Below are positions 11,048 to 53,189 of a stretch of 64,000 nucleotides of DNA, one piece after another. The stretch covers positions 96,001 through 160,000 of the IMG/VR virus record IMGVR_UViG_3300028840_006907, one strand, 5' to 3'. How positions within the stretch are numbered: position 1 is the stretch's first letter; each line of letters opens with the position of its first letter. The notes beneath the pieces are model-generated. The model was given only the letters and a program-made list of their open reading frames with translations, ran no database searches and was not told where the DNA came from. The translations under genes and the position numbers were made by a program. The DNA comes from a virus.

Positions 11048-12658
11048 TTAGTACAGAGGCTTTCCTGGTGCTGATCTCATACTCATAGGTCTTGGTATTT
11101 CTTCTTTCGCTGTTTCATCTTCTATAATAGCTATCTCTTCATTGAATTTATATGCTTTTAAATTCTTTTTAGACTGTTCGAAAAAGGTGATAGCTTTATC
11201 GATTTCATCTATAAGTGTTGATGTTTCCGGATTATCCATATTAATAAAGACCTTTTCAATAATACCGCATGTTAATTCTGCTTGTGTAAAATTATTGTTT
11301 AAGCATCGTGTTAGTATTTTTTCCAGATCTTTTTGTAGAGGAAATTCAATATCTTCGAATTTGGTATAGAAGCGTTTTAGTTTATTGAATTTGGACAGCA
11401 TCACGACATATGCCTCATCCCCGGTTCTGGGAGGTTTTATTTCAACTATTTCATCGAATCTCCCTGGTCGGTCAATGATAGTTTTATGGACTAATTCTGT
11501 GTCGTTAATGGTTATTAAAAGAACTATGTTAAGGTTATTATTTGTATCATCTATTTCATTTATAAAAGCTCCAACACGTTCGTTTTTTTCCTTAAATCCA
11601 AGAGCATCGAGATCTTCAATAATAACAAGAGCTGGTTGAATCATCCGAACAAATTGAAAGCACTTTTTTATTCGGTAAACTGTGCTGAATTCTTCAGGAC
11701 CTAGTTTGATAATAGTTATATCCGTAAGGATCTCTTCGAGTTTTTTTATGATAATAGATTTACCGGTACCCTGAAGCCCTATGAATCCGAAACCCCTTTT
11801 ACGATTATACTTTAAAATTTTCCTTATTACTTGTGCAAAAGCAGGAACATCATATTGGTTGATATTCTCTTCAACCTTCTGACGTGGTTTTGTTATAAGG
11901 CCATTTCTGAATTCCAATATATTGTCATGGGTATTAAAGGTGACAATGAAATCTTTTATTATGAGTTCTTCTAGATCGCGGATAATTTCTTCTGCTGAGT
12001 AAGATGAATTTAACGCATATTGTAAATCAAAGTAATATGAGGAAGATATCAACTTTGTGATCTTTAAATCGAACAATATTTTCTCATCATTAAATTCAAC
12101 CAGAATAAGGATCTCATTAAATTCGTGATCGAGTGAAACCTTTTCTAATGGTTTAAAAGAATGATCATAGTAACCTATTATTTTATATCCATTTGTTTTC
12201 GGGCTTTTAAATAGCCAGAATATGATGTCTTCATTTAAATATTTAGTCTCGTAATAACTGACATTATGGATATCCTCTATCTCTAAAAATTCTTTTAATT
12301 TCTTCTGCCTCTTATCATATTCAGAAAGTTCTTTTTGGTTTATTTTATCTATATATTTCTTGATTTTAATACCCATCTCCAGGCCATAGAGTGAAGCCGG
12401 TAAGGTATAGCGAAATAAGTTGAAGGTGTTTTTAAAAGTGAGTTTTCGATTACCATTGGTTAAGAATTTAAATCCTTTATCTAAATCTAAGATAACAGAT
12501 AAAGCTTTTGTGATATCTGCTGGACTTCCGTAATTTTCACCAATAAAATTGAATAAATGATATAGTTTGTGGTTTCTGGGAACCAGATTCATCAGTGATA
12601 TATCTGTTTTGGGATTTTCATCTCCTGCTGTCGTTACTGGCATATTTACTCGTGGCAT
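11048..12658 (-). CDS. AAA+ family ATPase
   Basis: 536 aa; Walker A GLQGTGKS, Walker B VIIEDLD. Confidence 0.7.
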   Translation of the reverse strand: MPRVNMPVTTAGDENPKTDISLMNLVPRNHKLYHLFNFIGENYGSPADITKALSVILDLDKGFKFLTNGNRKLTFKNTFNLFRYTLPASLYGLEMGIKIKKYIDKINQKELSEYDKRQKKLKEFLEIEDIHNVSYYETKYLNEDIIFWLFKSPKTNGYKIIGYYDHSFKPLEKVSLDHEFNEILILVEFNDEKILFDLKITKLISSSYYFDLQYALNSSYSAEEIIRDLEELIIKDFIVTFNTHDNILEFRNGLITKPRQKVEENINQYDVPAFAQVIRKILKYNRKRGFGFIGLQGTGKSIIIKKLEEILTDITIIKLGPEEFSTVYRIKKCFQFVRMIQPALVIIEDLDALGFKEKNERVGAFINEIDDTNNNLNIVLLITINDTELVHKTIIDRPGRFDEIVEIKPPRTGDEAYVVMLSKFNKLKRFYTKFEDIEFPLQKDLEKILTRCLNNNFTQAELTCGIIEKVFINMDNPETSTLIDEIDKAITFFEQSKKNLKAYKFNEEIAIIEDETAKEEIPRPMSMRSAPGKPLY

Positions 12659-15872: not shown

Positions 15873-16282
15873 TGGAGGTGAGGAGAGTTGAACTCCTGTC
15901 CGCGAAGGTATCTTGAGTAAACCTCTACATGTTTAGTCTATGGTTTAAATCTTATTCATAATCACGTTCACAGACAAACTTAATTAAGAACCAGTCTCTA
16001 GTCTCATTCATTGGTCAAGACTCCTCAATGAACCAGAACCCGTTTGGCTATCCGGAATTAACAGGGTTCAGTTAAAACCGGATTTGTCGTTTTTTGTTTA
16101 AACGACGGCTTCTTCTGCTTGATGAATAGCAGCAAGGTTAAGTGCTGAAAACATCGCACAGAAGTTAACTGTATTAGTTTTTTCAGTTATTATTGAAATC
16201 GGCTTTTTTACGAGGCCAACCGATTAACCTCGACATGCAGTTTACATTTCAACTCATCACGTCGAAAACCAAGTACACCCCC
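15873..16282 (-). ncRNA. ssrA: tmRNA (transfer-messenger RNA, ssrA-like)
   Basis: Minus strand 5' GGGGGTGTACTTGGTTTTCGACG..., internal GGTTGGCCTCGTAAAAAAGCCG matching conserved tmRNA pseudoknot/resume region, 3' tRNA-like GGAGTTCAACTCTCCTCACCTCCA. Confidence 0.8.
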
Positions 16283-25475: not shown

Positions 25476-26360
25476 GTGGATTTAATAATTGAAACAGATA
25501 TAGGTCATGATCCTGATGATTTCTTTGCACTCTGTTATTTCTTTTCTGTAGGAGTAAATGTACGGGCTATTTTAATCTCACCAGGAGATGAATCACAAGT
25601 TGCTATTGTTCGTTTTCTCCTCTCTGAACTGGGTAGAGAGGATGTAGTTGTAGGTGTCCCGGAACTGGGCAGAAGAAAGGAATATTTAACAAGTATTCAT
25701 AAATATTTTATTATAAGATATAATTATCCACGTTTTTCAGATGATTGTTGTGTTGGTGAAGAAATTCTTCATACTGTTTTTGATATATACCCTCAGAGTG
25801 AATTGTTTATTTGTGGTGCAATAAGAAATATTGGTAATTATCTTATCAGAAATGAAAATATAAAAATACCGAAAGCAGTCATGCAAGGTGGGTTTATAGG
25901 ATACGATACTCATGGTATTGATGTACCTAAATTAGATAAGTTCATTGGTAAAGAGAGTGTACCAACTTTTAATCTCAATGGATATGTCAGAGGTTCTCAG
26001 GCTTTTTTAAATCATTATAATATTGGGGAAAGATGGTTTGTTTCTAAAAATGTGTGTCACACAGCTATCTATGATTCAAAGATCCATGAAAAAGTTACGG
26101 CTATTCCGGCCAAGAACAGAGCAATGGAATTATTCCAGGAAGGAATGACAGAGTATTTAAGGAAACATCCTAAAGGTAAGAAATTCCATGATCCAACGGC
26201 AGCGGTATGCCATCTTCATCCTGAAATCGGGACTTGGGTAAAAGCCCGGTTATATCGATATCAAGGGGGATGGGGTTCTCGTATAGACGGTAATGGTGAT
26301 AATATTATAGTTGATATTGATCATAAAAAATTATGGGATTACATTGCAAAAGGAAAATAA
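25476..26360 (+). CDS. nucleoside hydrolase (IU-preferring family-like)
   Basis: 294 aa; N-terminal ETDIGHDPDDFFAL resembles DxDxxxDD nucleoside hydrolase signature. Confidence 0.6.
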   Translation: MDLIIETDIGHDPDDFFALCYFFSVGVNVRAILISPGDESQVAIVRFLLSELGREDVVVGVPELGRRKEYLTSIHKYFIIRYNYPRFSDDCCVGEEILHTVFDIYPQSELFICGAIRNIGNYLIRNENIKIPKAVMQGGFIGYDTHGIDVPKLDKFIGKESVPTFNLNGYVRGSQAFLNHYNIGERWFVSKNVCHTAIYDSKIHEKVTAIPAKNRAMELFQEGMTEYLRKHPKGKKFHDPTAAVCHLHPEIGTWVKARLYRYQGGWGSRIDGNGDNIIVDIDHKKLWDYIAKGK

Positions 26361-26989: not shown

Positions 26990-27796
26990 ATGATAAAGTT
27001 AATTTATGCTACTGACCTTCATGGGGATCCTCGTAAGTATCGAGCTGTTCTGGAATTCGCTCTGAAACATGATATAAAGTTAATTCATCTCGGTGCTGAT
27101 ATATTACCGAAAGGTACCAATCTGTTAAAGATACAGAAAAGGTTCGTTAAGAATTACTTAAAAGATTTTCATACTGAGTGCGACTCTTATGGTATCAAAA
27201 TTTTAAGTTTCTTTGGCAATGACGATATCTATACTCGTAAGAAGTATTTTCGGGAATATGGTGAATTGCTCGATGAGAATCCATGTACAATAGAAGGCTA
27301 TGAATTTAAAGCTTACCCCTATGTCTTGGATTATCCCTTTGGTATAAAATCCGCTTGTAAACTGGATTATCCTGGGTGGAAATGTCCCGATCTTTATTTA
27401 ACCAATCCATGTGAGTTTAATGAAAAAGGTTATTATCTCATTGAAGATATAAATGATTACTTTCTGCAGAAGGGTACTGTGGAAGATGATCTTAAAGAGA
27501 TCCATGCCGATGATAAAACTATCATGGCGATGCATATGCCTCCGCAGGGACTCGGTATGGATGTCTGTTACGGGAACAGGCGTGTAGGTTCCAAGTCAGT
27601 CCTGGACTGGATCTATCGGGAACAACCCTTGTTATTTCTGTCAGGTCATATTCATGAAAGTCCTGAGATAACGGGTATTTGGAAGACTATGGTAGGTGAC
27701 ACAGTGGTTATTCAGCCCGGACAAAAAACCGATAAAACCACAATGGTTTATATCGAAATAGATGGTAATAAAGTTGATGCTCAATTAATAGGATAA
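26990..27796 (+). CDS. calcineurin-like metallophosphoesterase
   Basis: 268 aa; DLHGD, GNDD, GHIHE motifs. Confidence 0.65.
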   Translation: MIKLIYATDLHGDPRKYRAVLEFALKHDIKLIHLGADILPKGTNLLKIQKRFVKNYLKDFHTECDSYGIKILSFFGNDDIYTRKKYFREYGELLDENPCTIEGYEFKAYPYVLDYPFGIKSACKLDYPGWKCPDLYLTNPCEFNEKGYYLIEDINDYFLQKGTVEDDLKEIHADDKTIMAMHMPPQGLGMDVCYGNRRVGSKSVLDWIYREQPLLFLSGHIHESPEITGIWKTMVGDTVVIQPGQKTDKTTMVYIEIDGNKVDAQLIG

Positions 27797-31459: not shown

Positions 31460-31549
31460 GAGTAGGAGGTCAGATAGTGGTTGGCTGCACCGGACTGTAA
31501 ATCCGGATCTCGTAAAGGGACGCTGGGGGTTCGACGCCCTCCCTACTCA
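31460..31549 (+). tRNA. tRNA-Tyr (anticodon GTA), type II
   Basis: Hand fold: acceptor GAGTAGG/CCTACTC, loop CTGTAAA, long variable arm. Confidence 0.8.
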
Positions 31550-31563
31550 TTTGTCAATTTTAT

Positions 31564-31649
31564 GGAGAGCAACCGAATGGTTAGGAGGCGGTTTCGAAAA
31601 CCGTTAAGGCTGAAAGGCTAACTAAGTTCGATTCTTAGGCTCTCCGCCA
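31564..31649 (+). tRNA. tRNA-Ser (anticodon CGA), type II
   Basis: Hand fold: acceptor GGAGAGC/GCTCTCC, loop TTCGAAA, CCA. Confidence 0.8.
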
Positions 31650-32066
31650 TTAACAAACAGATTTTAAAAAAGATGATGCTACTCTTTTAATTGCTTCTTT
31701 ATCGGCGTTTTCCATTTGATTAACAATTTTTTTGGCCCAGGTATATCCAGAATCACCTCCCCAAACAAGCCATGCTACATAACCTTTATCTTTCCATGGT
31801 TCATTTTTATATTCTGGGTTTATCTTTTTATTCTTTTGATGACGGTCGAAGAAAGCTTTCATTCTTTTGACTGTTTTGGGAGATAAAATATCTCTGTTTT
31901 TAAGATTAACAGCTCTTTGAACACCAGACCCAACACCTTCTGCTTTTGCCTGTTCAACTGTTAGTCCTCCTTTACCACCGGCCATTCTTCTATATCTTAA
32001 ACCTTTTTCAGCTTCTTTGGCTACTGATTCAGGAGGTTTAAAATTGATATGTTCATATTTTTTCAT
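31650..32066 (-). CDS. hypothetical protein
   Basis: 138 aa ORF, Gly-rich GGKGGLT and WLVWGGDSGY motifs. Confidence 0.5.
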   Translation of the reverse strand: MKKYEHINFKPPESVAKEAEKGLRYRRMAGGKGGLTVEQAKAEGVGSGVQRAVNLKNRDILSPKTVKRMKAFFDRHQKNKKINPEYKNEPWKDKGYVAWLVWGGDSGYTWAKKIVNQMENADKEAIKRVASSFLKSVC

Positions 32067-32116
32067 AATAAATAACTCCTTATTATGTTTTTATATATTT
32101 ATAGATAATTATTTTT

Positions 32117-32202
32117 GGAGGATATCCGAATTGGTTTAGGGGCTCGGTTGGAAACCGAGTGGGCTCAATGCCTTGCAGGTTCGATCCCTGTGTCCTCCGC
32201 CA
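32117..32202 (+). tRNA. tRNA-Ser (anticodon GGA), type II
   Basis: Hand fold: acceptor GGAGGAT/GTCCTCC, loop TTGGAAA, CCA. Confidence 0.8.
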
Positions 32203-32282
32203 CTTTTTCAAAAAAACTTCCGAACAATTCTTGTTCTCATGTCGTATCATATATAGGGGCTGTTTTTTATGAAAGGTAAGAT

Positions 32283-32624
32283 ATGGGTCGATACCAAATA
32301 GCACTGGAGAAAAAACCTAAAAAGATCGAGTTAAATAAATCCGATACTAAGAAAATTGATATTTCTAATAAATCTGAATTAAAACAATCATATTTCACCG
32401 ATCTTAAAGTGATGATGGAGTTTATGGCTGAAAAGGGTGGTAATTGGATACCAGAAAAAGATCTTTATTTTGAAGAGATCCCTTTAGTAGCCTATAAATC
32501 TGATAACGAAATGGTTGTCATTACTGCAAAGGATATGCATCTTACGGAAAAGAATATAACGGAAATGGACAGAAAATCTTTTAGATCTGAGAAACCTCTT
32601 CGATTTAAAAAGTTTTTTGAGTAG
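32283..32624 (+). CDS. MxRY-family small protein (paralog 1)
   Basis: 113 aa; N-terminus MGRYQIALEKKPKK. Confidence 0.5.
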   Translation: MGRYQIALEKKPKKIELNKSDTKKIDISNKSELKQSYFTDLKVMMEFMAEKGGNWIPEKDLYFEEIPLVAYKSDNEMVVITAKDMHLTEKNITEMDRKSFRSEKPLRFKKFFE

Positions 32625-32636
32625 GATAGGAATCAT

Positions 32637-32945
32637 ATGAGCCGGTATCGTATCATAGTTGATGAAAAAAAAGAAGAAGAACAGATCCATTTAAGACAGG
32701 AACGAAATAAAGAAGAGAATAATCGCATATTTGACGATGTAAAAAAGATGAGTGACTTTATGTCCCTATTAAATTCAGTATGGGTTCCTACTCATTTTGG
32801 GTTCATTATGAAATACAGGGAATTTGAAGGAGTGATAACAGTTATTATAAGTACTGCAGAGTATAATAAAACAAAAGATCTTTTACCCAAAGAATTGTTA
32901 ATACAATTCGAAGCTCATGGAGTGGTAGTTTTTAAAAAATCATGA
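32637..32945 (+). CDS. MxRY-family small protein (paralog 2)
   Basis: 102 aa; N-terminus MSRYRIIVDEKK. Confidence 0.5.
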   Translation: MSRYRIIVDEKKEEEQIHLRQERNKEENNRIFDDVKKMSDFMSLLNSVWVPTHFGFIMKYREFEGVITVIISTAEYNKTKDLLPKELLIQFEAHGVVVFKKS

Positions 32946-33262
32946 GTAGATACAAAATAGCATTAAATAAGGGAAAGTCTCCCGAAGATAAAGAATTAAA
33001 TGAGTATTTTGCAAATAAACCAGAACATAGTATTTCGTTTATAAGTGCTGTAGATGTTTATAATTTTTTATCTGAAGAAAGTGATAAATGGTTCCCAGAT
33101 TCTGGGACACCTTTGATAATAAGTTATGTAAATAAAGATAAAAATAGATCGTTTATGATAACTCAATATAACTGGAATAAGACAAAGCATTTTATACCAG
33201 TATCTATTTTGAGATCCATTGAAGAAAGAGCACCGTTTTTCGTATCAAAAAAGAGAGTATGA
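32942..33262 (+). CDS. MxRY-family small protein (paralog 3)
   Basis: 106 aa; N-terminus MSRYKIALNKGK. Confidence 0.5.
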   Translation: MSRYKIALNKGKSPEDKELNEYFANKPEHSISFISAVDVYNFLSEESDKWFPDSGTPLIISYVNKDKNRSFMITQYNWNKTKHFIPVSILRSIEERAPFFVSKKRV

Positions 33263-33263
33263 A

Positions 33264-33788
33264 ATGGGACAAGAAATTTGGTTGTACCCAGATCCGGTTC
33301 AGATACCTAAGGTAAAAGAGTACGTTAAACTTTTAGGTAAGAGGGTGGATGATTATAATTACATCGATGGACCGGATTTTGATGGTTGGGAAATGAATTG
33401 TTGGATTGAATGGACAACAGTGGATCCCGAATGGGAGAGTGATACAGAAGAATACAGTTTTGAAGGTATGGATGAATTCTTAGAAATAGGTTATCAATCT
33501 CATCACTATAAGGGTGATTTCGCAGAATGTATTGCCTGGGAAATTAAAAAACGATTTACAATACTTAAAGTTGGTTGGGATTCAATTGGATGGTCCACTC
33601 AGTTCTGGGATAATGAGCCTTTTGATTTTCAGATAAAGATGAGACAAAAAACATTGAAAAAAGATTTGAGTGATGAAATGCGAAGGGATTTCGAAGAAGA
33701 AATAGTTATGATAAAAAAGATAAAAGAAGGCTGTATGGGTTTTGCCAAAGAGCTGTTCTTAAAAGCTGATCAATTACTAAAAAATTAA
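33264..33788 (+). CDS. hypothetical Trp-rich acidic protein
   Basis: ORF-track 33219-33788 trimmed to ATG just after upstream stop (MGQEIWLYPDP...). Confidence 0.5.
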   Translation: MGQEIWLYPDPVQIPKVKEYVKLLGKRVDDYNYIDGPDFDGWEMNCWIEWTTVDPEWESDTEEYSFEGMDEFLEIGYQSHHYKGDFAECIAWEIKKRFTILKVGWDSIGWSTQFWDNEPFDFQIKMRQKTLKKDLSDEMRRDFEEEIVMIKKIKEGCMGFAKELFLKADQLLKN

Positions 33789-33790
33789 AT

Positions 33791-33946
33791 ATGGGTAGAT
33801 ACGAGATAGCACTAGATAAGCAACCGAAGAGAGTTTTAAATTTGAATCATTTTAAACAACAAGCCCAAACTGTTATATCAAGCTGGCCTAAATGGAAAAG
33901 ACAGGGAGCGGGTAAAGAGGAAACAGCTCCAATTAAAAGAAAATGA
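33791..33946 (+). CDS. MxRY-family small protein (paralog 4, 51 aa)
   Basis: Hand translation MGRYEIALDKQPKRVLNL...; below ORF-track cutoff. Confidence 0.4.
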   Translation: MGRYEIALDKQPKRVLNLNHFKQQAQTVISSWPKWKRQGAGKEETAPIKRK

Positions 33947-33964
33947 GTTATTAAGGGATACAGT

Positions 33965-34318
33965 ATGAGTCGTTTTGATATTGCCTTGGGTAAAGAACTC
34001 CCAAAGGTAAAAAAGACCAAAAATTCTAAGAAAAGTAAGAAGGCTAAAAAGAAGGTTATTTCTCCGTATGATTTAAAGAGTAATGTAACTGTATTTACGA
34101 ATGCTCGTAAGATGTATGAGTTTATGGGTTTGGCAATAGGTTCTTGGCATCCTGTTATTTCTGACCCACCGGTGATTGGTTATCATAACCCGGCTTGGGA
34201 AGGGATCTCGGTTACAATTAGTGTTGAAGATTACAACAAAACAAAAAGTCCAATTAAGGGTATTAAGATGCCTGTTATGAGTCCTGTTGAAATTGTAGGA
34301 AATTTGTTTAGAAAATAA
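33965..34318 (+). CDS. MxRY-family small protein (paralog 5)
   Basis: 117 aa; N-terminus MSRFDIALGKELPK. Confidence 0.5.
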   Translation: MSRFDIALGKELPKVKKTKNSKKSKKAKKKVISPYDLKSNVTVFTNARKMYEFMGLAIGSWHPVISDPPVIGYHNPAWEGISVTISVEDYNKTKSPIKGIKMPVMSPVEIVGNLFRK

Positions 34319-34320
34319 AT

Positions 34321-34397
34321 GGCAGTGTAGCATAGTAGATTAATGCATTCGGCTCATATCCGGGAGATCGGAGGTTTAATTCCTCTCACTGCCACCA
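34321..34397 (+). tRNA. tRNA-Met/Ile2 (anticodon CAT)
   Basis: Hand fold: acceptor GGCAGTG/CACTGCC, loop CTCATAT, CCA. Confidence 0.75.
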
Positions 34398-34420
34398 ATT
34401 TACATAAAGAAAGAAGTAGT

Positions 34421-34621
34421 ATGACATATGAATTAGAATTTGATCCTGAATATGAAGAACAAATTCGTGAGGCAGAATTACTTGCTAGTGATATATGCCC
34501 TACGTGCCTTGGTTCAGGTAAGGTCTATGGTAAATGGAATACAAAAAAACGGTGTACTGACTGTGATGGTACAGGAAAACACCCGGATAATCATAAAGAA
34601 GAAAAGGAGCTTCCTTATTAA
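34421..34621 (+). CDS. small DnaJ-type zinc-finger protein (CXXCXGXG x2)
   Basis: Trimmed to ATG after tRNA; CPTCLGSGK and CTDCDGTGK. Confidence 0.5.
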   Translation: MTYELEFDPEYEEQIREAELLASDICPTCLGSGKVYGKWNTKKRCTDCDGTGKHPDNHKEEKELPY

Positions 34622-34900
34622 TGGCAACAAACAACCAGACTACAACGCGCTGGGATCCTAATGGTGAAATCGTGAAAAACTATGGTTGTTTGAGCGATTG
34701 TGACGGTGCGATAATCCGATGACGGTGGACTCCGTAGCTGAAGCTCCATATCAGCTTCTATGGGTAACAATGGAGATAACCCATAGCGCAGGGCTGTCAT
34801 AGCTTTAGAGTGTCATATAAGGAAGTATCCTTATATAAATTTATTAACCCTTTACAAAGGAGGTAGATATGCTATAACACAATAAACAAGGAGTTATAGT

Positions 34901-35137
34901 ATGTCTAGAAGTTACAGAAAGCCGTATGTAAAAGACGGCTATGGATCAAAGGGCAAAAGATTCATGAAGAATTATGCCAATCGGGTGGTAAGGCATTCTA
35001 AGGATGTTCCGAATGGCAGAGCCTATAAGAAATTATTTTGTTCTTATGATATTTGTGATTATTATTTCTACGTGGAAGTAAAGAGAAAGGATGATCCTTA
35101 TTTTGAACCAGAGTTCTGGAAATACGCCAGAAAATGA
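34901..35137 (+). CDS. hypothetical basic protein
   Basis: 78 aa ORF. Confidence 0.4.
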   Translation: MSRSYRKPYVKDGYGSKGKRFMKNYANRVVRHSKDVPNGRAYKKLFCSYDICDYYFYVEVKRKDDPYFEPEFWKYARK

Positions 35138-35309
35138 AATAAAAGTACAAGCTACAAGGATAATGCAGGAATTACTTAAACGCATCTTAGACAATTCTGC
35201 AGAGGTAGGACGACCAGACCCAGACATAAGATATGGCTCTTCTCTTCATGTTTTAAGTAAATCCATTGGGCAAGTCATGGCGGAGGAATTGGAGAAATTG
35301 AAGAAATGA
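35091..35309 (+). CDS. hypothetical protein
   Basis: 72 aa ORF overlapping neighbour in another frame. Confidence 0.35.
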   Translation: MILILNQSSGNTPENEIKVQATRIMQELLKRILDNSAEVGRPDPDIRYGSSLHVLSKSIGQVMAEELEKLKK

Positions 35310-35503
35310 AAGTTTCATTCCATTTTTTATGGTATGACTTCTGGGTCGGGTTCTTTTGGGATCAAAAGAAACGAATTTTGTACTTTTGCCCATTACCATG
35401 TGCCGTTATTAAAATGAAATTCAGGAAAAGGAAAATTGATAAAGGTTTTCGACATCCAAAATTAAGCTTCTTTTATAAAGTTTTTAAAGGGAAAAAAGAA
35501 TAA
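35306..35503 (+). CDS. hypothetical protein
   Basis: 65 aa ORF. Confidence 0.35.
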   Translation: MKVSFHFLWYDFWVGFFWDQKKRILYFCPLPCAVIKMKFRKRKIDKGFRHPKLSFFYKVFKGKKE

Positions 35504-37741: not shown

Positions 37742-38035
37742 ATGAATAAAAGGTGCTTTTATACGTCAATAGTGCAAAGCCGGTATCATATCAGAGGCAC
37801 TAAGCCACAGGAACCTTATATTCATTATATAGATCCTTATCTTCGGAAGGTATTGAGATATCCTCGGTGGTTAAGATCTGATCTTAAATTTGAAGTACAA
37901 GAGCCCGTTTTATCGAAAAAAGAATATTTAAAAATAAAAATGAAAATTATAGCTAAAATTGCAAAAAAAGCTACAGAGCAAATTCAAGCTGAAGAAGATA
38001 GACGCATTATCAAATTTTTAAAGAAAGTTGCATAA
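37742..38035 (+). CDS. hypothetical protein
   Basis: 97 aa ORF. Confidence 0.4.
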   Translation: MNKRCFYTSIVQSRYHIRGTKPQEPYIHYIDPYLRKVLRYPRWLRSDLKFEVQEPVLSKKEYLKIKMKIIAKIAKKATEQIQAEEDRRIIKFLKKVA

Positions 38036-40868: not shown

Positions 40869-41246
40869 ATGGCAAAGAAAAAAATATTCGAAATCGATAA
40901 AGACAGTATTGTTAAAGCAACTAAAGAGGGTTATCTATATTGTTGTACTATACCACCTCATGGAGAAATCCGTGGGGATAGAAATAAGCGTTATATTTAT
41001 TACCATAGAGCTTTAATGGAACAAAAATTAGGTCGTTTTCTTAAATCTTGGGAAGAGGTTGACCATAAAAATGGGGATAAAACTGATAACCGCCTATCAA
41101 ATCTTGTTTTAAAGGTACATGGAGAGCATCAACGTGATCATGCCAATAATGGTAATAGCTTCTGGAAAAAGAGTCCTCTGAATAAACCTGGTGCGAAACG
41201 AAAGGCTCATAGAGTAATAGCTAAGTTTTTGGGAGAAATGTGTTAA
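40869..41246 (+). CDS. HNH homing endonuclease
   Basis: 125 aa; VDHKNGDKTDNRLSNL HNH_3-like motif. Confidence 0.7.
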   Translation: MAKKKIFEIDKDSIVKATKEGYLYCCTIPPHGEIRGDRNKRYIYYHRALMEQKLGRFLKSWEEVDHKNGDKTDNRLSNLVLKVHGEHQRDHANNGNSFWKKSPLNKPGAKRKAHRVIAKFLGEMC

Positions 41247-41478
41247 AGAATACTTTTTCGGCTTCTTGTGGAGTATACTTTTTAAATAAGAGTGATATCT
41301 TTTTTCCTTCAATATCTAAAATTCTTTCTACATAAGGTTGCCCTATTTCAGGTATAAATTTATTTGCAAATTTATTATTTTTCTGTATTTTCAATGAATG
41401 GTGATATCTTAATTTTGAAGGAATATCTTTTATTCTTTTTTTAGGTTTTTTCTCTAAAATTATCTCATATCTACCCAT
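41221..41478 (-). CDS. MxRY-family small protein (paralog 6, dispersed copy)
   Basis: 85 aa; N-terminus MGRYEIILEKKPKK. Confidence 0.5.
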   Translation of the reverse strand: MGRYEIILEKKPKKRIKDIPSKLRYHHSLKIQKNNKFANKFIPEIGQPYVERILDIEGKKISLLFKKYTPQEAEKVFFNTFLPKT

Positions 41479-41481
41479 GAT

Positions 41482-41985
41482 TTAAAAAGTTTTCCATGAA
41501 GTCCCTTCTGAATTACCTGCTCCGGGTCCAGCAGTAAAACCGCAGGTCTTACAAGTAGGGTACTGCCAGCATGTGGTACCATTTCCTTCATAAGTCCGAC
41601 AACAACGACAGTTTGTATATGTATATTTTATATCAATTCCCCCACATTTGGGGCATGGGTCTTGTCCGTTTCTTAGAATACCTTTTTCATCAAATAACTT
41701 TTTCAGTCGTCTTTTTTCTTTGTATAGGTTCTCAATCTTTTTATCTATTTTTTCAATCATTTTAGTAAAGATAGGATTAGCCTTGTTCCAAGCAATTCGG
41801 ATTGATTCATATTCTGCTCCTAAAGCACAAATACTTACCTTTACTGTATTATTACATTTTTTATTTGAGCACCGGGCCTCACCGGGATTAAAGGTTGTAT
41901 AACCGCAATGCCCAGCCAAGATTCCTTTGGTACCACATTTTAAACAGGGGTTAACCTTTTTATTAATAGGAGTTTTTAGTTCCAT
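41482..41985 (-). CDS. Lar-like restriction alleviation protein with extra C-terminal zinc ribbon
   Basis: 167 aa; PCLKCG...C..C...IRIAWNKANP resembles Lar family; second CPKCGG...CKTCG. Confidence 0.5.
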   Translation of the reverse strand: MELKTPINKKVNPCLKCGTKGILAGHCGYTTFNPGEARCSNKKCNNTVKVSICALGAEYESIRIAWNKANPIFTKMIEKIDKKIENLYKEKRRLKKLFDEKGILRNGQDPCPKCGGIDIKYTYTNCRCCRTYEGNGTTCWQYPTCKTCGFTAGPGAGNSEGTSWKTF

Positions 41986-46401: not shown

Positions 46402-47571
46402 TTATCCAAAATTAGACTTTCGGGTCAGAGGTATCTTTTTTGCAGTATCCGCAAATAGTTTTAACCCTTTCCATGAATCAATGTGGTAGGAAGTAATATA
46501 AGGTGCCTTAGGAGGTGGGCAACCACAATGCCCGTTAACTCTAACTGATCTTTTACCCTCTTTATTGGCATACATCTCCTTAGCATCTTTTAAAGGCATA
46601 TTCCCATCGACCATCCAGTAAGTCCATGCTCTTTCAAAGGTGAAACCCGGGAGTTCTCCAGAGATAGAGAAAGGAACTTCTCCGTCACCTTTTTTAGATA
46701 CAATATCAATACCGGCTAGATCAAGTTCAAGTCTGATGTAATGATCACAAGCTACCTCTCCAGCAAGATTCCCCATTGTATAACTTTCTCCATTATTGGC
46801 TAGATGCGTTTCGCATTTCTTTTTGATTTTTTTCTGATAACATTCTTCGTGGAAATATTTCCATTTTTCATAAAGAACTTCATCATTTTCTTCAATGACA
46901 TAATTTTCATCTATATTTTTTCTGCCATTTTTGTTTTTCTCATAACCATATTCTTTATCAATAGTCAGGTCAATGAGCCCCCTATTGAAAATAGTATGAT
47001 GAAATATATAGACAGTATTTTTGTCTGTGTTTCGAAGCTCTTTTTCAATTTCTGTTAAAGTTTTCCCGACGTATTTGGAGTTTATCTCAAATTGGTTAGA
47101 GTACCGTAATCTTTTGGTTTTATGGCAATACTCTACTTCCCATCCTTTATTACAGTGGGAACATTTTACATAAGCGGGAGGTAAATCATTGCCCATTGAG
47201 AATGAGATACTTATAGGATACGGCCTTTTGTTTTTTGCCCAATCAAAATCTTCTGCATCCATCTCTTCTCGGGTTAATATATTAGGGATATTTTCTTTAC
47301 TCCATCTTTCAATAAAATCCCAAAATTCTGTCTTTGTAAAAACTTTTCCTACAGGAAAATTGAAAATTTTCTCTACCGGAATAAAACCTGTCGCAGTACC
47401 TAAATTACCACACGTATCGAGATAATATCGACCTAAGACATAATATTCGTATAGTCTTTCATCACGTTTGTAACCTGCTTCGTGTCTTTCATTGATCATT
47501 TCCCAAAATGTGTTGTAAGATTTAAGTGACTTTTCGATTCCTTTAATTGTGTTATAGTCTTGTTTTTTCAT
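46402..47571 (-). CDS. hypothetical protein
   Basis: 389 aa ORF, no motif recognised. Confidence 0.5.
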   Translation of the reverse strand: MKKQDYNTIKGIEKSLKSYNTFWEMINERHEAGYKRDERLYEYYVLGRYYLDTCGNLGTATGFIPVEKIFNFPVGKVFTKTEFWDFIERWSKENIPNILTREEMDAEDFDWAKNKRPYPISISFSMGNDLPPAYVKCSHCNKGWEVEYCHKTKRLRYSNQFEINSKYVGKTLTEIEKELRNTDKNTVYIFHHTIFNRGLIDLTIDKEYGYEKNKNGRKNIDENYVIEENDEVLYEKWKYFHEECYQKKIKKKCETHLANNGESYTMGNLAGEVACDHYIRLELDLAGIDIVSKKGDGEVPFSISGELPGFTFERAWTYWMVDGNMPLKDAKEMYANKEGKRSVRVNGHCGCPPPKAPYITSYHIDSWKGLKLFADTAKKIPLTRKSNFG

Positions 47572-48599
47572 TTTACCACATGTTTAGAAGTGATTGTTTC
47601 TGCGAATTCTGGCCCCCTATCATAGTCATCAATCCATATGTTATCACAGTGCCGATTTCCTTTTTTCTCACTGCCGTACCATTGTGTCCTCCAATGTGCC
47701 TCAACTCTTATCTTATGATCCAGTTTCCATTTTCCGACACCTCCAGCTTGTTTGATACGAGTTATATCGTTATTCTTATCCTTTATATTTGAACCAACAA
47801 TAATAAATCTTTTGTTGGTAGCTTTTTCTTTCCTTTGTTCCAGTTTTCTTTTCTTGGTTTTATTTTTAATATTTTTTAATCTTGCATCAAAATCTAGTGG
47901 ATCATGGTTTTTTAAATCAGGTTTTTTGCTTGTGATATATAAAAGAGTGTTAAATACAAATTTTGCGAATTCTTCTAAATGATCAACATTTTTATATAAA
48001 TCATATTTATCTACTTCTTCCTTTTTTCTTTTTGTCTCATTTTCAATATAAATCTTTAATTGATCCTGAATTTTTCCAGGTTGCATTTCTATGTGGAAAT
48101 AAAAGGTGGTATCATTAAATGGTATGTCTGGTGTAGGTTTTAATAATGAACATGCCATTACTCTAATATGCTTTTCAGTATTGAAATCTCGAAGATAAAC
48201 GTAAAAACCATTTACAGGATGTTTACTTCCATCTATATCATTTATAGAAAAAAGACCTGGATCTATCTGTATAAAAATTTCTCTAAACGGGGATCTTAAG
48301 AAATAAGCATCAGTATTACAATTTGTTTGGGCTAGTCTTGCTGAAAGTTCTGGTGTTATATAGTATATCTGATCAGCATTATTTTTCATTTGATACATAT
48401 GAAAATATGTATTGTAAAAATGACTTATTCTTGCTGGTGAATCAAATTCAGTAAAAATAGAAGAAGTAGCATTACAAAATTGTTTGAATGTAGGATCAAA
48501 ACCAATATCGAGCATATTTTGTACTAGTATAGTTGGGGCTACTGTCTCTAGATGTTTAATAGCCAGTTCATAATGAGTTTTTGTGAAATACTTCTCCAT
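47568..48599 (-). CDS. hypothetical protein
   Basis: 343 aa ORF. Confidence 0.5.
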   Translation of the reverse strand: MEKYFTKTHYELAIKHLETVAPTILVQNMLDIGFDPTFKQFCNATSSIFTEFDSPARISHFYNTYFHMYQMKNNADQIYYITPELSARLAQTNCNTDAYFLRSPFREIFIQIDPGLFSINDIDGSKHPVNGFYVYLRDFNTEKHIRVMACSLLKPTPDIPFNDTTFYFHIEMQPGKIQDQLKIYIENETKRKKEEVDKYDLYKNVDHLEEFAKFVFNTLLYITSKKPDLKNHDPLDFDARLKNIKNKTKKRKLEQRKEKATNKRFIIVGSNIKDKNNDITRIKQAGGVGKWKLDHKIRVEAHWRTQWYGSEKKGNRHCDNIWIDDYDRGPEFAETITSKHVVK

Positions 48600-48763: not shown

Positions 48764-49390
48764 ATGATTGAGACACTTTTTTATTTTTGCTATTATTCTT
48801 ATTTACTAGGTGACTTAAAAAGTACTGAGATGTACTATTCTCTATTGAGAAAAGAATTCAAAGAACATGGCCGAAAAGATTCATTAGAATCTCACCAATA
48901 CCGAGAATTGAAAAAAGTTAAAGATGCTCTTGATTCTGGAACCATATCCAAGAAGGAATGGGTAGCTGATAAAGTTATTGTACCCAAGATTAATTCAGAG
49001 ATAAAAATAAAACAAGATGAATTGGTCCGGAAGATCCATATGGAGGGGCTAGAACAGCTTAAAGTTATCTTGGATGATTGTGTGCAGATATATAATATTG
49101 AGCATCCTTGTGGCTCCTACGGGGCTGTAGATATGGTTTATAAAGGATTGAATACGATCTATCCGGTGGAAGTGAAACGAAGTCGGGGAGAACATGATTT
49201 AATTGGACAAATAGGAAAGTATGATTTATATCATCGTTTAAGGCTCCATTACAAACATTATAAACATGTTCAACCGGTAACGATATGTCATTCTTATCAG
49301 AAATTTGCTTTAAATGAGTTAAGACAAATGAGGGTTTTGACCTTAATTTATACCATAATTAATAAGAAAATTACTCTAAATGTAATATAA
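48764..49390 (+). CDS. hypothetical protein, possible PD-(D/E)xK nuclease fold
   Basis: 208 aa; AVDMVY...IYPVEVKRS resembles D...E.K motif. Confidence 0.4.
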   Translation: MIETLFYFCYYSYLLGDLKSTEMYYSLLRKEFKEHGRKDSLESHQYRELKKVKDALDSGTISKKEWVADKVIVPKINSEIKIKQDELVRKIHMEGLEQLKVILDDCVQIYNIEHPCGSYGAVDMVYKGLNTIYPVEVKRSRGEHDLIGQIGKYDLYHRLRLHYKHYKHVQPVTICHSYQKFALNELRQMRVLTLIYTIINKKITLNVI

Positions 49391-53115: not shown

Positions 53116-53189
53116 GCGCCTGAGGCTCTGAGGTGAGCAACTTGGACTCTAAATCCAAGTTTTTCAGGGTTCGACTCCCTACAGGCGCA
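53116..53189 (+). tRNA. suppressor tRNA (anticodon CTA, reads UAG)
   Basis: Hand fold: acceptor GCGCCTG/CAGGCGC, anticodon stem TTGGA/TCCAA, loop CTCTAAA (U33, CUA, A37), T-loop TTCGACT. Confidence 0.65.

Follow-up and report, generated by a model that had tools for sequence, protein, structure and literature searches.

Six small genes in the genome of a huge phage begin with nearly the same protein sequence. Does this shared beginning mark one protein family, or does it have a function of its own on proteins that are otherwise different? The genes lie in a 64-kb stretch of viral DNA (hereafter the window). It comes from a huge-phage contig of 388-470 kb that encodes 34 tRNAs and a tmRNA. A blastn search with positions 31500-35500 against GenBank phages returned no relative. 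A previous, sequence-only reading had described five consecutive plus-strand genes and one dispersed minus-strand copy that begin alike and then diverge, and had ascribed them to tandem diversification in an arms race with the host.

Six genes with a common N-terminus

All six ORFs of the sequence-only reading are present, encoding proteins of 51-117 aa, and the motif that they share, M-[GS]-R-[YF]-x-I-[AI]-[LV], is real. A six-frame search with the regular expression [MVL][GSAT]R[YFW]x[IVL][IVLA][LVI] returned exactly these six ORFs and no others in the 64 kb. At the DNA level, a degenerate pattern of the motif matched six times against 0.06 expected by chance, as estimated from 100 dinucleotide-preserving shuffles, no single one of which gave more than one match. 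Over ten positions, the form within the window is M-[G/S]-R-[Y/F]-x-I-[A/I]-[L/V]-x-[K/E], which we call the tag. The similarity is not an artefact of start-codon choice, a concern that had been raised with the original description: an in-frame stop lies 1-7 codons before each ATG, a purine-rich Shine-Dalgarno-like stretch precedes most of the starts, the gene models that JGI called independently for the source contig have identical starts, and orthologs on other contigs also begin at the motif. The proteins are small and mostly basic, with pI values of 9.0-10.5 for five of the six (the exception is paralog B). Searches of all six against Pfam and PHROGs gave nothing above threshold, and none matched pfam12699, the inner-head family A of phiKZ and SPN3US.

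A tRNA-Ser(GGA) gene called by ARAGORN (32117-32202, plus strand) forms the conserved upstream boundary of the array; in the related contig L007, the A ortholog is preceded by an identical tRNA-Ser and an identical intergenic Shine-Dalgarno sequence. Paralog A (32283-32624, plus strand; 113 aa, pI 9.0) carries the tag MGRYQIALEKKP, encoded by its first 12 codons (32283-32318, plus strand), followed by a Lys-rich linker and a C-terminal domain (C-domain), and ends at a TAG stop. Paralog B (32637-32945, plus strand; 102 aa, pI 6.8) joins the tag MSRYRIIVDEKK to its C-domain by an acidic/basic linker, and its stop overlaps the start of C as ATGA. Paralog C (32942-33262, plus strand; 106 aa, pI 9.3) consists of the tag MSRYKIALNKGK, a linker, and a C-domain with NWNKTKHFIPVS. 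An untagged acidic gene (33264-33788, plus strand; 174 aa, pI 4.6) that is not a family member is inserted here, between the third and fourth tagged genes, which means that the five plus-strand genes are not consecutive as had been stated. It matched no Pfam or PHROG family and is missing from the A-B-C-D block of L007. A tag-only ORF (33791-33946, plus strand; 51 aa, pI 10.5) then carries MGRYEIALDKQP followed by ...VISSWPKWKRQ...; its SSWPxWKR segment has a homologous counterpart in the linker of P0011, a protein of subfamily D. Paralog D (33965-34318, plus strand; 117 aa, pI 10.0) has the tag MSRFDIALGKEL, a very Lys-rich linker and the C-domain. The conserved downstream boundary is a tRNA-Met(CAT) gene (34321-34397, plus strand; also called by ARAGORN), which also lies downstream of the D ortholog in L065 and of a shortened array in L003. 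The dispersed sixth gene (41221-41478, minus strand; 85 aa, pI 10.0) starts 4 nt past the stop of a Cys-rich gene (41482-41985) and joins the tag MGRYEIILEKKP to an unrelated body. This body is a singleton, and the protein (P0008) retrieved only itself.

Paralogs A and B lie in one frame, as do the 51-aa ORF and D, which are separated by TGA and six codons. Two read-through products were considered: an A-B fusion across TAG, in view of a CUA-anticodon tRNA in the window, and one across TGA that would join the 51-aa ORF to D. Neither in-frame arrangement is kept in L003 or L007, and this phage uses TAG as a normal stop; read-through was rejected and the arrangement treated as coincidence.

An old paralog family within the array

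A-D (102-117 aa) are full-length paralogs composed of the tag, a linker predicted to be disordered, and an orphan alpha/beta domain of ~70 aa. That the copies begin alike and then diverge is accurate for the 51-aa and 85-aa ORFs, which have nothing but the tag in common with A-D, and inaccurate for A-D themselves, which are homologous over their full length. Among 20 tagged family members, mean pairwise identity was highest in the tag (58%), lower in the C-domain (31%), and lowest in the linker (17%). In AlphaFold2 predictions, residues 1-30 scored a pLDDT of ~50, compared with 80-89 in the C-domain; these values come from a usable run on 24 sequences (pLDDT 74 overall), as a 7-sequence run was too poor (pLDDT 56).

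Comparison with related phages indicates that the duplications of A-D are old, as each of the four subfamilies has its own orthologs in other phages. These are P0005, P0006, P0007, P0009, P0012, and P0018 for A; P0022, P0013, P0014, and P0019 for B; P0010, P0015, P0020, and P0026 for C; and P0011, P0016, P0017, P0021, L007 1104-1427, and L065 256-510 for D. A search for related loci with the subfamily-C alignment found no IMG/VR relative. The gene order tRNA-Ser, A, B, C, D is conserved in L007. Against L003, A-D are 35-43% identical and their syntenic neighbours a median of ~57%. A tandem array of paralogs with a conserved N-terminus is thus a correct description of the locus. The data do not bear out diversification of tandem copies in an arms race, given that the paralogs are ancient, their order is conserved, and their divergence is only moderately above that of their neighbours.

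The tag on unrelated proteins of huge phages

A metagenome collection that did not contain the source contig of the window was scanned for the tag. In related uncultured huge phages its consensus is MNRYDIALGKxPP, and the clade as a whole gives the 12 residues M-[N/D/S/G/T]-R-Y-x-I-A-L-G-K-x-P; as a peptide it is represented by MNRYDIALGKKPP and the variants of the window. Position 9 is Gly in 59 of 91 copies, Asn in 10, Lys in 10, and Glu in 3; Asp also occurs. The 92 tagged proteins, each with the tag at its extreme N-terminus, had at least 62 mutually unrelated bodies, defined as having no BLASTP link at E<1e-4. Most are small ORFans, with dozens of unrelated ones in the clade and perhaps 5-20% of genes tagged in some loci. 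Within the window, three unrelated bodies carry the tag (the A-D family, the 51-aa ORF, and the 85-aa ORF), and in L008 three adjacent tagged genes with unrelated bodies stand beside an untagged homolog of the A-D domain. This distribution indicates that the motif is a modular peptide and not a family signature. A literature search for the motif, written in several variants, turned up no paper that contains it.

The sequence-only reading amounts to an ordinary tandem family that diversifies under pressure from the host and whose fold is simply best conserved at the N-terminus. A-D are indeed true tandem paralogs, somewhat more diverged than their syntenic neighbours in the comparison with L003, and copy number varies (2 in L003, 4 in L007, and 4 plus 2 in the window). 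However, the four subfamilies and their gene order are old and conserved, the tag is predicted to be disordered, with an unconserved linker between it and the fold, and untagged homologs of the domain exist (P0024 and P0025). The same peptide on at least 62 unrelated bodies, major capsid proteins (MCPs) among them, contradicts this view as a full explanation, and we consider it very unlikely. Mis-called starts as the source of tags outside the family are disfavoured by codon and ORF context.

Between the tag and each body lies a flexible linker that is not conserved and is rich in Lys, Pro, or Glu. Within the tag, the alternation of Tyr4, Ile6, and Leu8 suggests a short amphipathic strand. The R-hydrophobic-x-hydrophobic-x-hydrophobic pattern resembles the strand of ribbon-helix-helix (RHH) proteins, a likeness that brought a DNA-binding strand under consideration; this candidate was rejected, as the tag is followed by an unconserved Pro-/Lys-rich linker that is predicted to be disordered, and no RHH Pfam match was obtained.

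At the conserved positions of the tag, every codon for Arg (6), Leu (6), Gly (4), Ala (4), and Pro (4) occurs. With all synonymous codons in use, selection acts on the peptide. DNA upstream of the tag is without conservation, except for a weak purine-rich stretch. A nucleic-acid element, be it an RNA site that serves translation initiation or regulation or a site of recombination that shuffles gene cassettes, would be in keeping with a motif always at gene starts, in tagged genes that occupy tightly packed operons. It is strongly disfavoured by the scrambled synonymous positions and the unconserved upstream DNA, as well as by a second tag copy that is internal in MCPs, and we assign it next to no probability.

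To place the tag relative to cellular sequences, MxRYxIALGKxP was searched in 596 Gb of bacterial and archaeal genomes (one genome for each of 185,579 species). Only 4 matches were found: 3 were chance Ser/Phe variants and 1 was a 241-kb contig also present in the metagenome scan. The tag is therefore essentially absent from these bacterial and archaeal genomes and specific to phages. This result bears on mimicry of a host protease substrate, as in staphylococcal phage 80alpha, where the N-termini of capsid and scaffold proteins copy the pro-sequence of ribosomal protein L27 and are cut by the host protease Prp. A short N-terminal motif common to capsid and accessory proteins is what 80alpha would lead one to expect, but no host protein family with the motif emerged from the scan, and such mimicry is extremely improbable here.

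Tagged major capsid proteins

The only recognisable tagged proteins were major head proteins of the phage G type, homologs of Bacillus phage G gp27; 8 of 72 tagged proteins matched phrog_2522, with E-values down to 3e-51. Where the N-terminus of an MCP homolog was read, the tag was present in 15 of 23 proteins, and four had two tandem tags. The MCP of L010 has a tag copy at its C-terminus, and one operon of L033 encodes a tagged 66-aa ORF together with three tagged MCP paralogs. Tandem tags and the C-terminal copy suggest binding valency rather than a cleavage signal.

Such valency is relevant to the proposal that the tag is solely a maturation propeptide, recognised by a head protease or another protease and having no targeting role. 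The prohead proteases of T4 and giant phages remove N-terminal propeptides of 10-20 residues from capsid and internal proteins (PMC5694885), and a head maturation protease gene lies near the MCP in relatives with this MCP type. However, no conserved protease cleavage motif was found after the tag, an (S/A/G/L/I)-x-E site being present in a minority of copies, and the conserved residues form a hydrophobic strand, not the context of a scissile bond. A purely propeptide function is accordingly unlikely.

Several genes of the window have 44-57% identity to genes of contigs with tagged MCPs; among the latter is the gene immediately upstream of the operon for tagged MCPs in L033 and L064. These similarities indicate that the window phage is a member of the tagged-MCP clade. 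Its own MCP was found neither in the window (tblastn and profile search) nor among the MCP homologs retrieved, and its scaffold, portal, and protease are likewise absent from the window. The tag is absent from phage G and Tunturi_5, cultured relatives with the same MCP type, so their proteomics cannot be borrowed; it is also absent from the uncultured LR745208 genome. Homologs of the phage G and Tunturi_5 protease and decoration proteins, and of the proteins encoded next to them, were not found in the retrieved tagged loci.

No enzyme Pfam domain was found in any of the 72 tagged proteins. By comparison, 150 untagged neighbours from the same loci matched 97 Pfam families, including RNR, methylases, glycosyltransferases, and NAD synthase. 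The enzyme-like tagged proteins were a Walker-A family and a nucleotidyltransferase (NTase)-like protein with a sub-threshold GGAVRD match.

These clients are also pertinent to a generic docking motif without a packaging role, by which tagged proteins, MCP included, would be brought to some other phage machine: a chaperone or chaperonin, an AAA+ unfoldase or protease, or an assembly or replication compartment. Parallels would be the clamp-binding motifs of many replication proteins and the dependence of T4 gp23 on GroEL and gp31. A terminal motif with a disordered linker and diverse bodies fits such a hub equally well, as does a large client set (the perhaps 5-20% of genes tagged in some loci); the Walker-A and NTase-like proteins need not be virion components, and an AAA protein gene is present in the window (11048-12658). 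On the other hand, the sole identifiable clients are capsid proteins, often doubly tagged, many clients of 50-100 aa would hardly need a foldase, and no co-occurring candidate hub gene was seen. The lack of ordinary enzymes also fits a virion or takeover class better than general clients. We consider a hub of this kind rather unlikely, though a serious competitor.

A putative head-targeting tag

With the same peptide on at least 62 unrelated proteins including the MCP, the most likely reading, which we hold tentatively, is that the tag is a capsid or prohead targeting sequence and that the window proteins are packaged. The tag would be a 12-residue address, or docking peptide, that docks its bearer on a common prohead site, which would be either on the scaffold/core or on the inside of the HK97-type shell. 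This would lead to co-assembly of tagged proteins within the head; they could later be trimmed by the head protease and may be delivered with the DNA. A-D and the 51-aa and 85-aa ORFs would then be packaged internal head proteins, functional analogs of T4 IPI, IPII, and IPIII. A host-interaction or anti-defence role of the protein bodies is possible by analogy, and would be natural if they were packaged and injected like T4 IPI*.

Head targeting has in its favour the modularity of the tag, selection on the peptide, the linker, the link to the MCP, clade membership, the absence of enzymes, the basic pI values, and precedent. Counting against it, the MCP is the sole tagged protein with a link to the virion, and packaging of the rest is something we infer. 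Further points against it are that the head genes of the window phage were not found, that phage G, Tunturi_5, and LR745208 have untagged MCPs of this type, that the tag is followed by no conserved cleavage motif, and that it does not resemble the T4 signal beyond one Tyr. The array is located in a tRNA island and not in a head module. Furthermore, the enzyme-like tagged proteins would not obviously be head cargo; T4 Alt illustrates that enzymes can be packaged.

Precedent comes from several systems. The capsid targeting sequence (CTS) of T4 (PMC3012670, PMC5694885), carried by IPI, IPII, IPIII, and Alt, resembles the tag as a peptide of ~10 residues at the extreme N-terminus of otherwise unrelated small proteins. 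T4 internal cargo is diverse and includes some anti-restriction factors (PMC3012670). The ip genes of T4 flank its tRNA cluster on both sides, at distances of 1-5 kb, comparable to the position of the window array. From the T4 IPI, IPII, and IPIII N-termini, of which the latter two both begin MKTYQEFIAE, only Tyr4 coincides with the tag, so there is no homology. T4 also has a defined (L/I)xE cleavage site, for which the tag has no conserved counterpart. The T4 MCP gp23 and vertex protein gp24 carry N-terminal propeptides (PMC5694885), and the CTS differs from the gp23 propeptide, whereas MCPs of the window's relatives bear the same tag as the small proteins, sometimes twice. Finally, the T4 signal is on a handful of proteins, compared with at least 62 families across the clade for a tag whose role in packaging is inferred.

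SPN3US and phiKZ are likewise huge phages, with paralogous head or ejection proteins of variable copy number and identical paralog N-termini; the SPN3US head paralogs gp53 and gp54 share the 15-residue N-terminus MANFVKSKLARESVE (PMC5694885). Unlike the window proteins, theirs belong to pfam12699 and have propeptides of 100+ residues with AXE/SXE sites, while the 12-residue tag is common far beyond one paralog family. In P1, the N-terminal 30 residues of the anti-restriction protein DarB form a packaging signal that suffices for capsid entry (PMC9024508). An N-terminal segment would by analogy serve the same purpose in the window, although the P1 signal concerns a single protein, spans 30 residues, and contains no motif common to many proteins.

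Encapsulins offer a further comparison. Their cargo peptide attaches to the inside of an HK97-fold shell; it is usually C-terminal and LTVGSLK-like, and the shell protein is without it. Like the tag, it is a terminal peptide of hydrophobic-x-hydrophobic-Gly-x-Lys character, attached by a flexible linker to diverse cargo. Unlike it, the tag is N-terminal, has another consensus, and is found on the shell protein itself, the evidence here being the co-occurrence of tag and MCP. A bolder version of head targeting, which we regard as doubtful though conceivable, is that cargo enters the head by mimicking the MCP N-terminus, with one universal label serving the whole clade as encapsulin-like loading in a tailed phage. 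Still more speculatively, the near-invariant Lys10 might form a covalent, isopeptide-type tether to the shell.

Implications

If the tag does target proteins to the head, it would provide a sequence-derived list of the packaged and injected proteins of uncultured 400-600 kb phages. Host defences would encounter these proteins before any other phage product, and they are ORFans that otherwise cannot be annotated. Should the label be universal, dozens of ORFan families per genome would be listed, the A-D array included. It would also be a natural case of one loading peptide common to many cargo families and a shell protein. The T4 CTS has served to load foreign proteins into capsids, and the tag would be a compact, portable means of doing so for large phage capsids. 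Even if the hub is not the capsid, it is unusual for a viral proteome to be organised around one short linear motif, carried here by at least 62 unrelated phage protein families.

Six window ORFs share an N-terminal tag

The window, a piece of a huge phage, has a G+C content of 33%. Its 64 kb encode 34 tRNAs and one tmRNA (15873-16282, minus strand). Proteins identical to its own occur on a 388,651-bp JGI contig (3300017963, Ga0180437_10000019) and a 469,617-bp assembly, while no nucleotide-level relative was found among GenBank phages. Six ORFs are headed by the motif M-[GS]-R-[YF]-x-I-[AI]-[LV], and a six-frame scan returned those six only. The corresponding degenerate DNA pattern matched 6 times in the window, compared to 0.06 expected from shuffles. 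These tagged ORFs are A (32283-32624, 113 aa), B (32637-32945, 102 aa), C (32942-33262, 106 aa), a 51-aa ORF (33791-33946), and D (33965-34318, 117 aa), all on the plus strand, and a dispersed 85-aa ORF on the minus strand (41478-41221). Five of the six products are small and basic. The array block is flanked by tRNA-Ser(GGA) and tRNA-Met. A sequence-only reading had described its five plus-strand genes as consecutive, but an untagged gene for an acidic 174-aa protein (33264-33788) interrupts them.

The motif itself proved real. That reading had named wrong start-codon choice as a possible source of the similarity, an objection that failed when checked. Each ATG lies 1-7 codons 3' of an in-frame stop, and most follow a purine-rich stretch of ribosome-binding type; the stop of B and the start of C overlap as ATGA. 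Independent JGI gene calls agree, and orthologs elsewhere begin at the same motif.

Neighboring tagged ORFs are closely spaced. A ends in TAG with the start of B four codons on in the same frame (32622-32639), and the 51-aa ORF ends in TGA with D six codons on, likewise in frame (33944-33967). Read-through at either stop would yield double-tag proteins resembling the double-tag major capsid proteins (MCPs) of related phages. The arrangement is not conserved (a TAA stop in the related contig L007, an overlap in another frame in L003) and is probably coincidence. A CTA-anticodon tRNA (amber suppressor, labeled Pyl by ARAGORN) is encoded at 53116-53189 on the plus strand. TAG nonetheless remains the stop of 11 of the 70 window ORFs of at least 100 aa, and reading it as sense adds little coding length, so the window gives no clear evidence that TAG is recoded.

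Two further ORFs of the window were noted. Just upstream, on the opposite strand, a 138-aa gene (31650-32066, minus) matches part of the 740-position profile of phrog_2859, of unknown function (E 1.5e-12). A 97-aa ORF (37742-38035, plus) contains a weakly tag-like internal stretch (...VQSRYHIRGTKPQEP...) and matches the MCP profile via tag columns only (E 3.5e-4 in a 136-sequence search). This stretch may be a degenerate tag copy or chance.

Anatomy and age of paralogs A-D

The proteins had been described as near-identical at the start and divergent thereafter. This holds for the 51-aa and 85-aa ORFs, which have the tag alone in common with the others, but A-D are homologous over their entire length, comprising the tag, a linker of 20-40 residues, and a domain of ~70 residues. 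The linker is poorly conserved, with many Lys residues in A and D and an acidic or mixed charge in B and C. Conserved elements of the domain are F..M..(F/Y)M......W.P and (D/N)(Y/W)NKTK. Across 20 tagged family members, pairs were on average 58% identical over the tag, 17% over the linker, and 31% over the domain. An AlphaFold2 model built with 24 sequences predicted a beta-alpha-beta-beta-beta-alpha-alpha domain (pLDDT 80-89) following an unstructured segment at residues 1-30 (pLDDT ~50).

When 1.84 billion representative proteins were searched exhaustively with a profile, only 20 members of the A-D family were recovered. They form four subfamilies with one window paralog in each. L007 (1.4 kb) starts within the same tRNA-Ser, after which A, B, C, and D follow without interruption, ordered as in the window. 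In L065, tRNA-Met comes after D and the genes beyond it are those of the window, and the syntenic 23.7-kb L003 has A and B only. By these comparisons the A-D duplications are old: the window phage has retained an ancient four-gene block and gained, between C and D, the 174-aa gene as well as the tagged ORF of 51 aa. The segment VISSWPKWKRQ of the 51-aa ORF is homologous to the linker of a subfamily-D protein, P0011 (SIVSSWPEWKRD), and the ORF resembles the 5' portion of a D-type gene, duplicated or split off, with its tag intact. A and B share 35-43% identity with their L003 counterparts, compared to 43-83% (median ~57%) for the remaining syntenic genes. Their divergence is faster than average but not extreme, and with duplications this old the data do not show the proposed tandem diversification in an arms race.

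The tag is found on unrelated proteins of related phages

The first hint of modularity came from locus L008, where an untagged protein homologous to the A-D domain (P0025) is encoded a few genes upstream of three consecutive tagged genes that share an N-terminus and have unrelated bodies. Degenerate DNA patterns for the peptide were run over public collections. IMG/VR yielded five genuine loci, and JGI metagenomes yielded 82. Of these 82, ~70 were clearly genuine, with N, D, S, T, or G at residue 2, a continuation rich in Pro, Glu, or Lys, and a match that began an ORF. After deduplication, 92 tagged proteins remained, with bodies in 62 groups lacking BLASTP similarity to one another. A-D are true paralogs, but a plain paralog family as the explanation of the tag is disfavored by these 62 groups.

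The consensus, counted out of 91, was M-[N41 D26 S11 G8 T5]-R91-Y87-x-I88-A73-L83-G59-K87-x-P71-P42, the search pattern having in part constrained A7, L8, K10, and P12. A relaxed scan of the same loci found I or L at position 7, among other variants. All six Arg and all six Leu codons are used within the tag, as are all four codons each for Gly, Ala, and Pro. Upstream DNA is unconserved save for a weak purine-rich stretch, both across the clade and within the window. Together these features place selection at the level of the peptide rather than of RNA or DNA, and disfavor a nucleic-acid element as the conserved entity.

As in the window, tagged genes typically occur in tight runs of two to four (L019, L033, L043, L046, L062, L071). 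The 441,848-bp phage contig Ga0315284_10000005 carries at least 12 tagged ORFs of at least 50 aa in the ~40 kb examined. The tag is specific to phages. In bacterial and archaeal genomes totaling 596 Gb, the pattern's G9 form matched 4 times, a scarcity that disfavors mimicry of a host peptide. Three were chance Ser/Phe variants, and the fourth was a 241-kb contig also found in the metagenome scan. This contig (L103/L026; Ga0099364_10000018 = WRKW01000001.1, 240,976 bp) was deposited within an Alphaproteobacteria MAG. Its 884-aa ORF contains a perfect MNRYSIALGKQP but is open for 93 codons upstream. Perhaps a huge-phage contig was mis-binned here, or the match is internal or due to chance.

Capsid proteins are the identifiable bearers

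None of 72 tagged proteins scanned contained an enzyme Pfam domain (E<=0.001). Their sole PHROG function was 'major head protein', with phrog_2522 in 8 proteins (E down to 3e-51) and further matches to phrog_544 and phrog_1650. In contrast, 150 untagged ORFs of the same loci matched 97 Pfam families (E<=1e-5), including ribonucleotide reductase, DNA methylases, glycosyltransferases, NAD synthase, TnpB, and sigma factors. The tag thus marks a functional class of its own.

The tagged head proteins are homologous to the Bacillus phage G capsid protein gp27. Among 23 MCP homologs with N-termini read, 15 begin with the tag and a Pro-rich linker, and four (P0028, P0034, P0037, P0040) bear two tandem N-terminal tags. 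The tag is absent from the same-type MCPs of phage G, Tunturiibacter phage Tunturi_5, and the uncultured 485-kb LR745208. One tagged major head protein (L010 340-1434) has another copy at its extreme C-terminus (...GRNRYAIALGKKFA*). In the IMG/VR locus L011, the MCP match of a tagged gene (903-1819) falls in two pieces in different frames (903-1523, 1589-1819), behind an 85-aa tagged MCP N-terminal fragment (659-916). The split could be a frameshift, pseudogene, or assembly error.

An exception among the bearers is a recurrent family with a Walker A motif, G(S/D/G)R(G/S/R)(K/S)GKT, directly after the linker (L008 1856-2407; L018 516-1, minus; L043 1729-2412; L086 180-1, minus). It had no significant Pfam match and often lies downstream of a tagged family of 235-259 aa (L018 1424, L043 212, L066 1337, L084 1001). 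A tagged 224-aa product (L062 7464-8135, minus) with GGAVRD in its sequence and a PolyA_pol head-domain match that stays below threshold (E 0.0015) may be a nucleotidyltransferase.

Judging from gene homology, the window phage is a member of this tagged-capsid clade. Window gene 25476-26360 is 48-50% identical to the gene that directly precedes the tagged MCP operon of L033 and L064, a gene of L046 (same 441-kb contig) is 57% identical to 26990-27796, 48764-49390 is 50-54% identical to genes in L027, L062, and L050, and 47568-48599 is 44% identical to one in L062. No MCP lies within the 64-kb window, and the window phage's MCP was not among the database MCP matches. The product of 47568-48599 (minus, 343 aa) is also 59% identical to that of an L003 gene with a Pfam AcrVA2-like match, which in L003 (17051-20348) and L004 adjoins phage-encoded Cas7 and Csd1 (type I-C) genes.

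Possible function of the tag

The tag is conserved at the peptide level, strictly N-terminal, and modular, with alternating hydrophobics (Y4, I6, L8) and a predicted disordered linker to unrelated bodies, among which the capsid protein is the only identifiable one. In general terms, it is very probably a modular docking or address peptide. More specifically, we tentatively propose a head-docking and packaging signal: the tag would dock its bearer at a common site of the assembling head, docked proteins would be packaged, and the tag may later be trimmed. Docking to another phage hub is the main rival and seems rather unlikely. A propeptide serving cleavage only is less probable still.

Direct precedents exist. 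T4 internal proteins IPII and IPIII have an identical MKTYQEFIAE start and ip genes beside the T4 tRNA cluster, and in SPN3US, paralogous head proteins are identical over their first 15 residues. In P1 DarB, the packaging signal consists of 30 N-terminal residues (PMC9024508). By analogy, the tag may work like a T4-type capsid targeting sequence (CTS) or an encapsulin cargo-loading peptide while belonging to neither. It has no sequence similarity to the T4 CTS, and no (L/I)xE site is conserved. Encapsulin cargo usually bears its peptide at the C-terminus, whereas this tag is N-terminal, and unlike both it is borne by the shell protein itself. Variants of the motif string appeared in no paper of the literature searched, nor was such a tag described in the work retrieved on capsid targeting in huge phages. 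It thus appears to be a previously undescribed, clade-wide N-terminal tag with a putative function in the head. The interest lies less in A-D themselves than in their tag, which in related huge phages also heads capsid proteins and dozens of other ORFan families.
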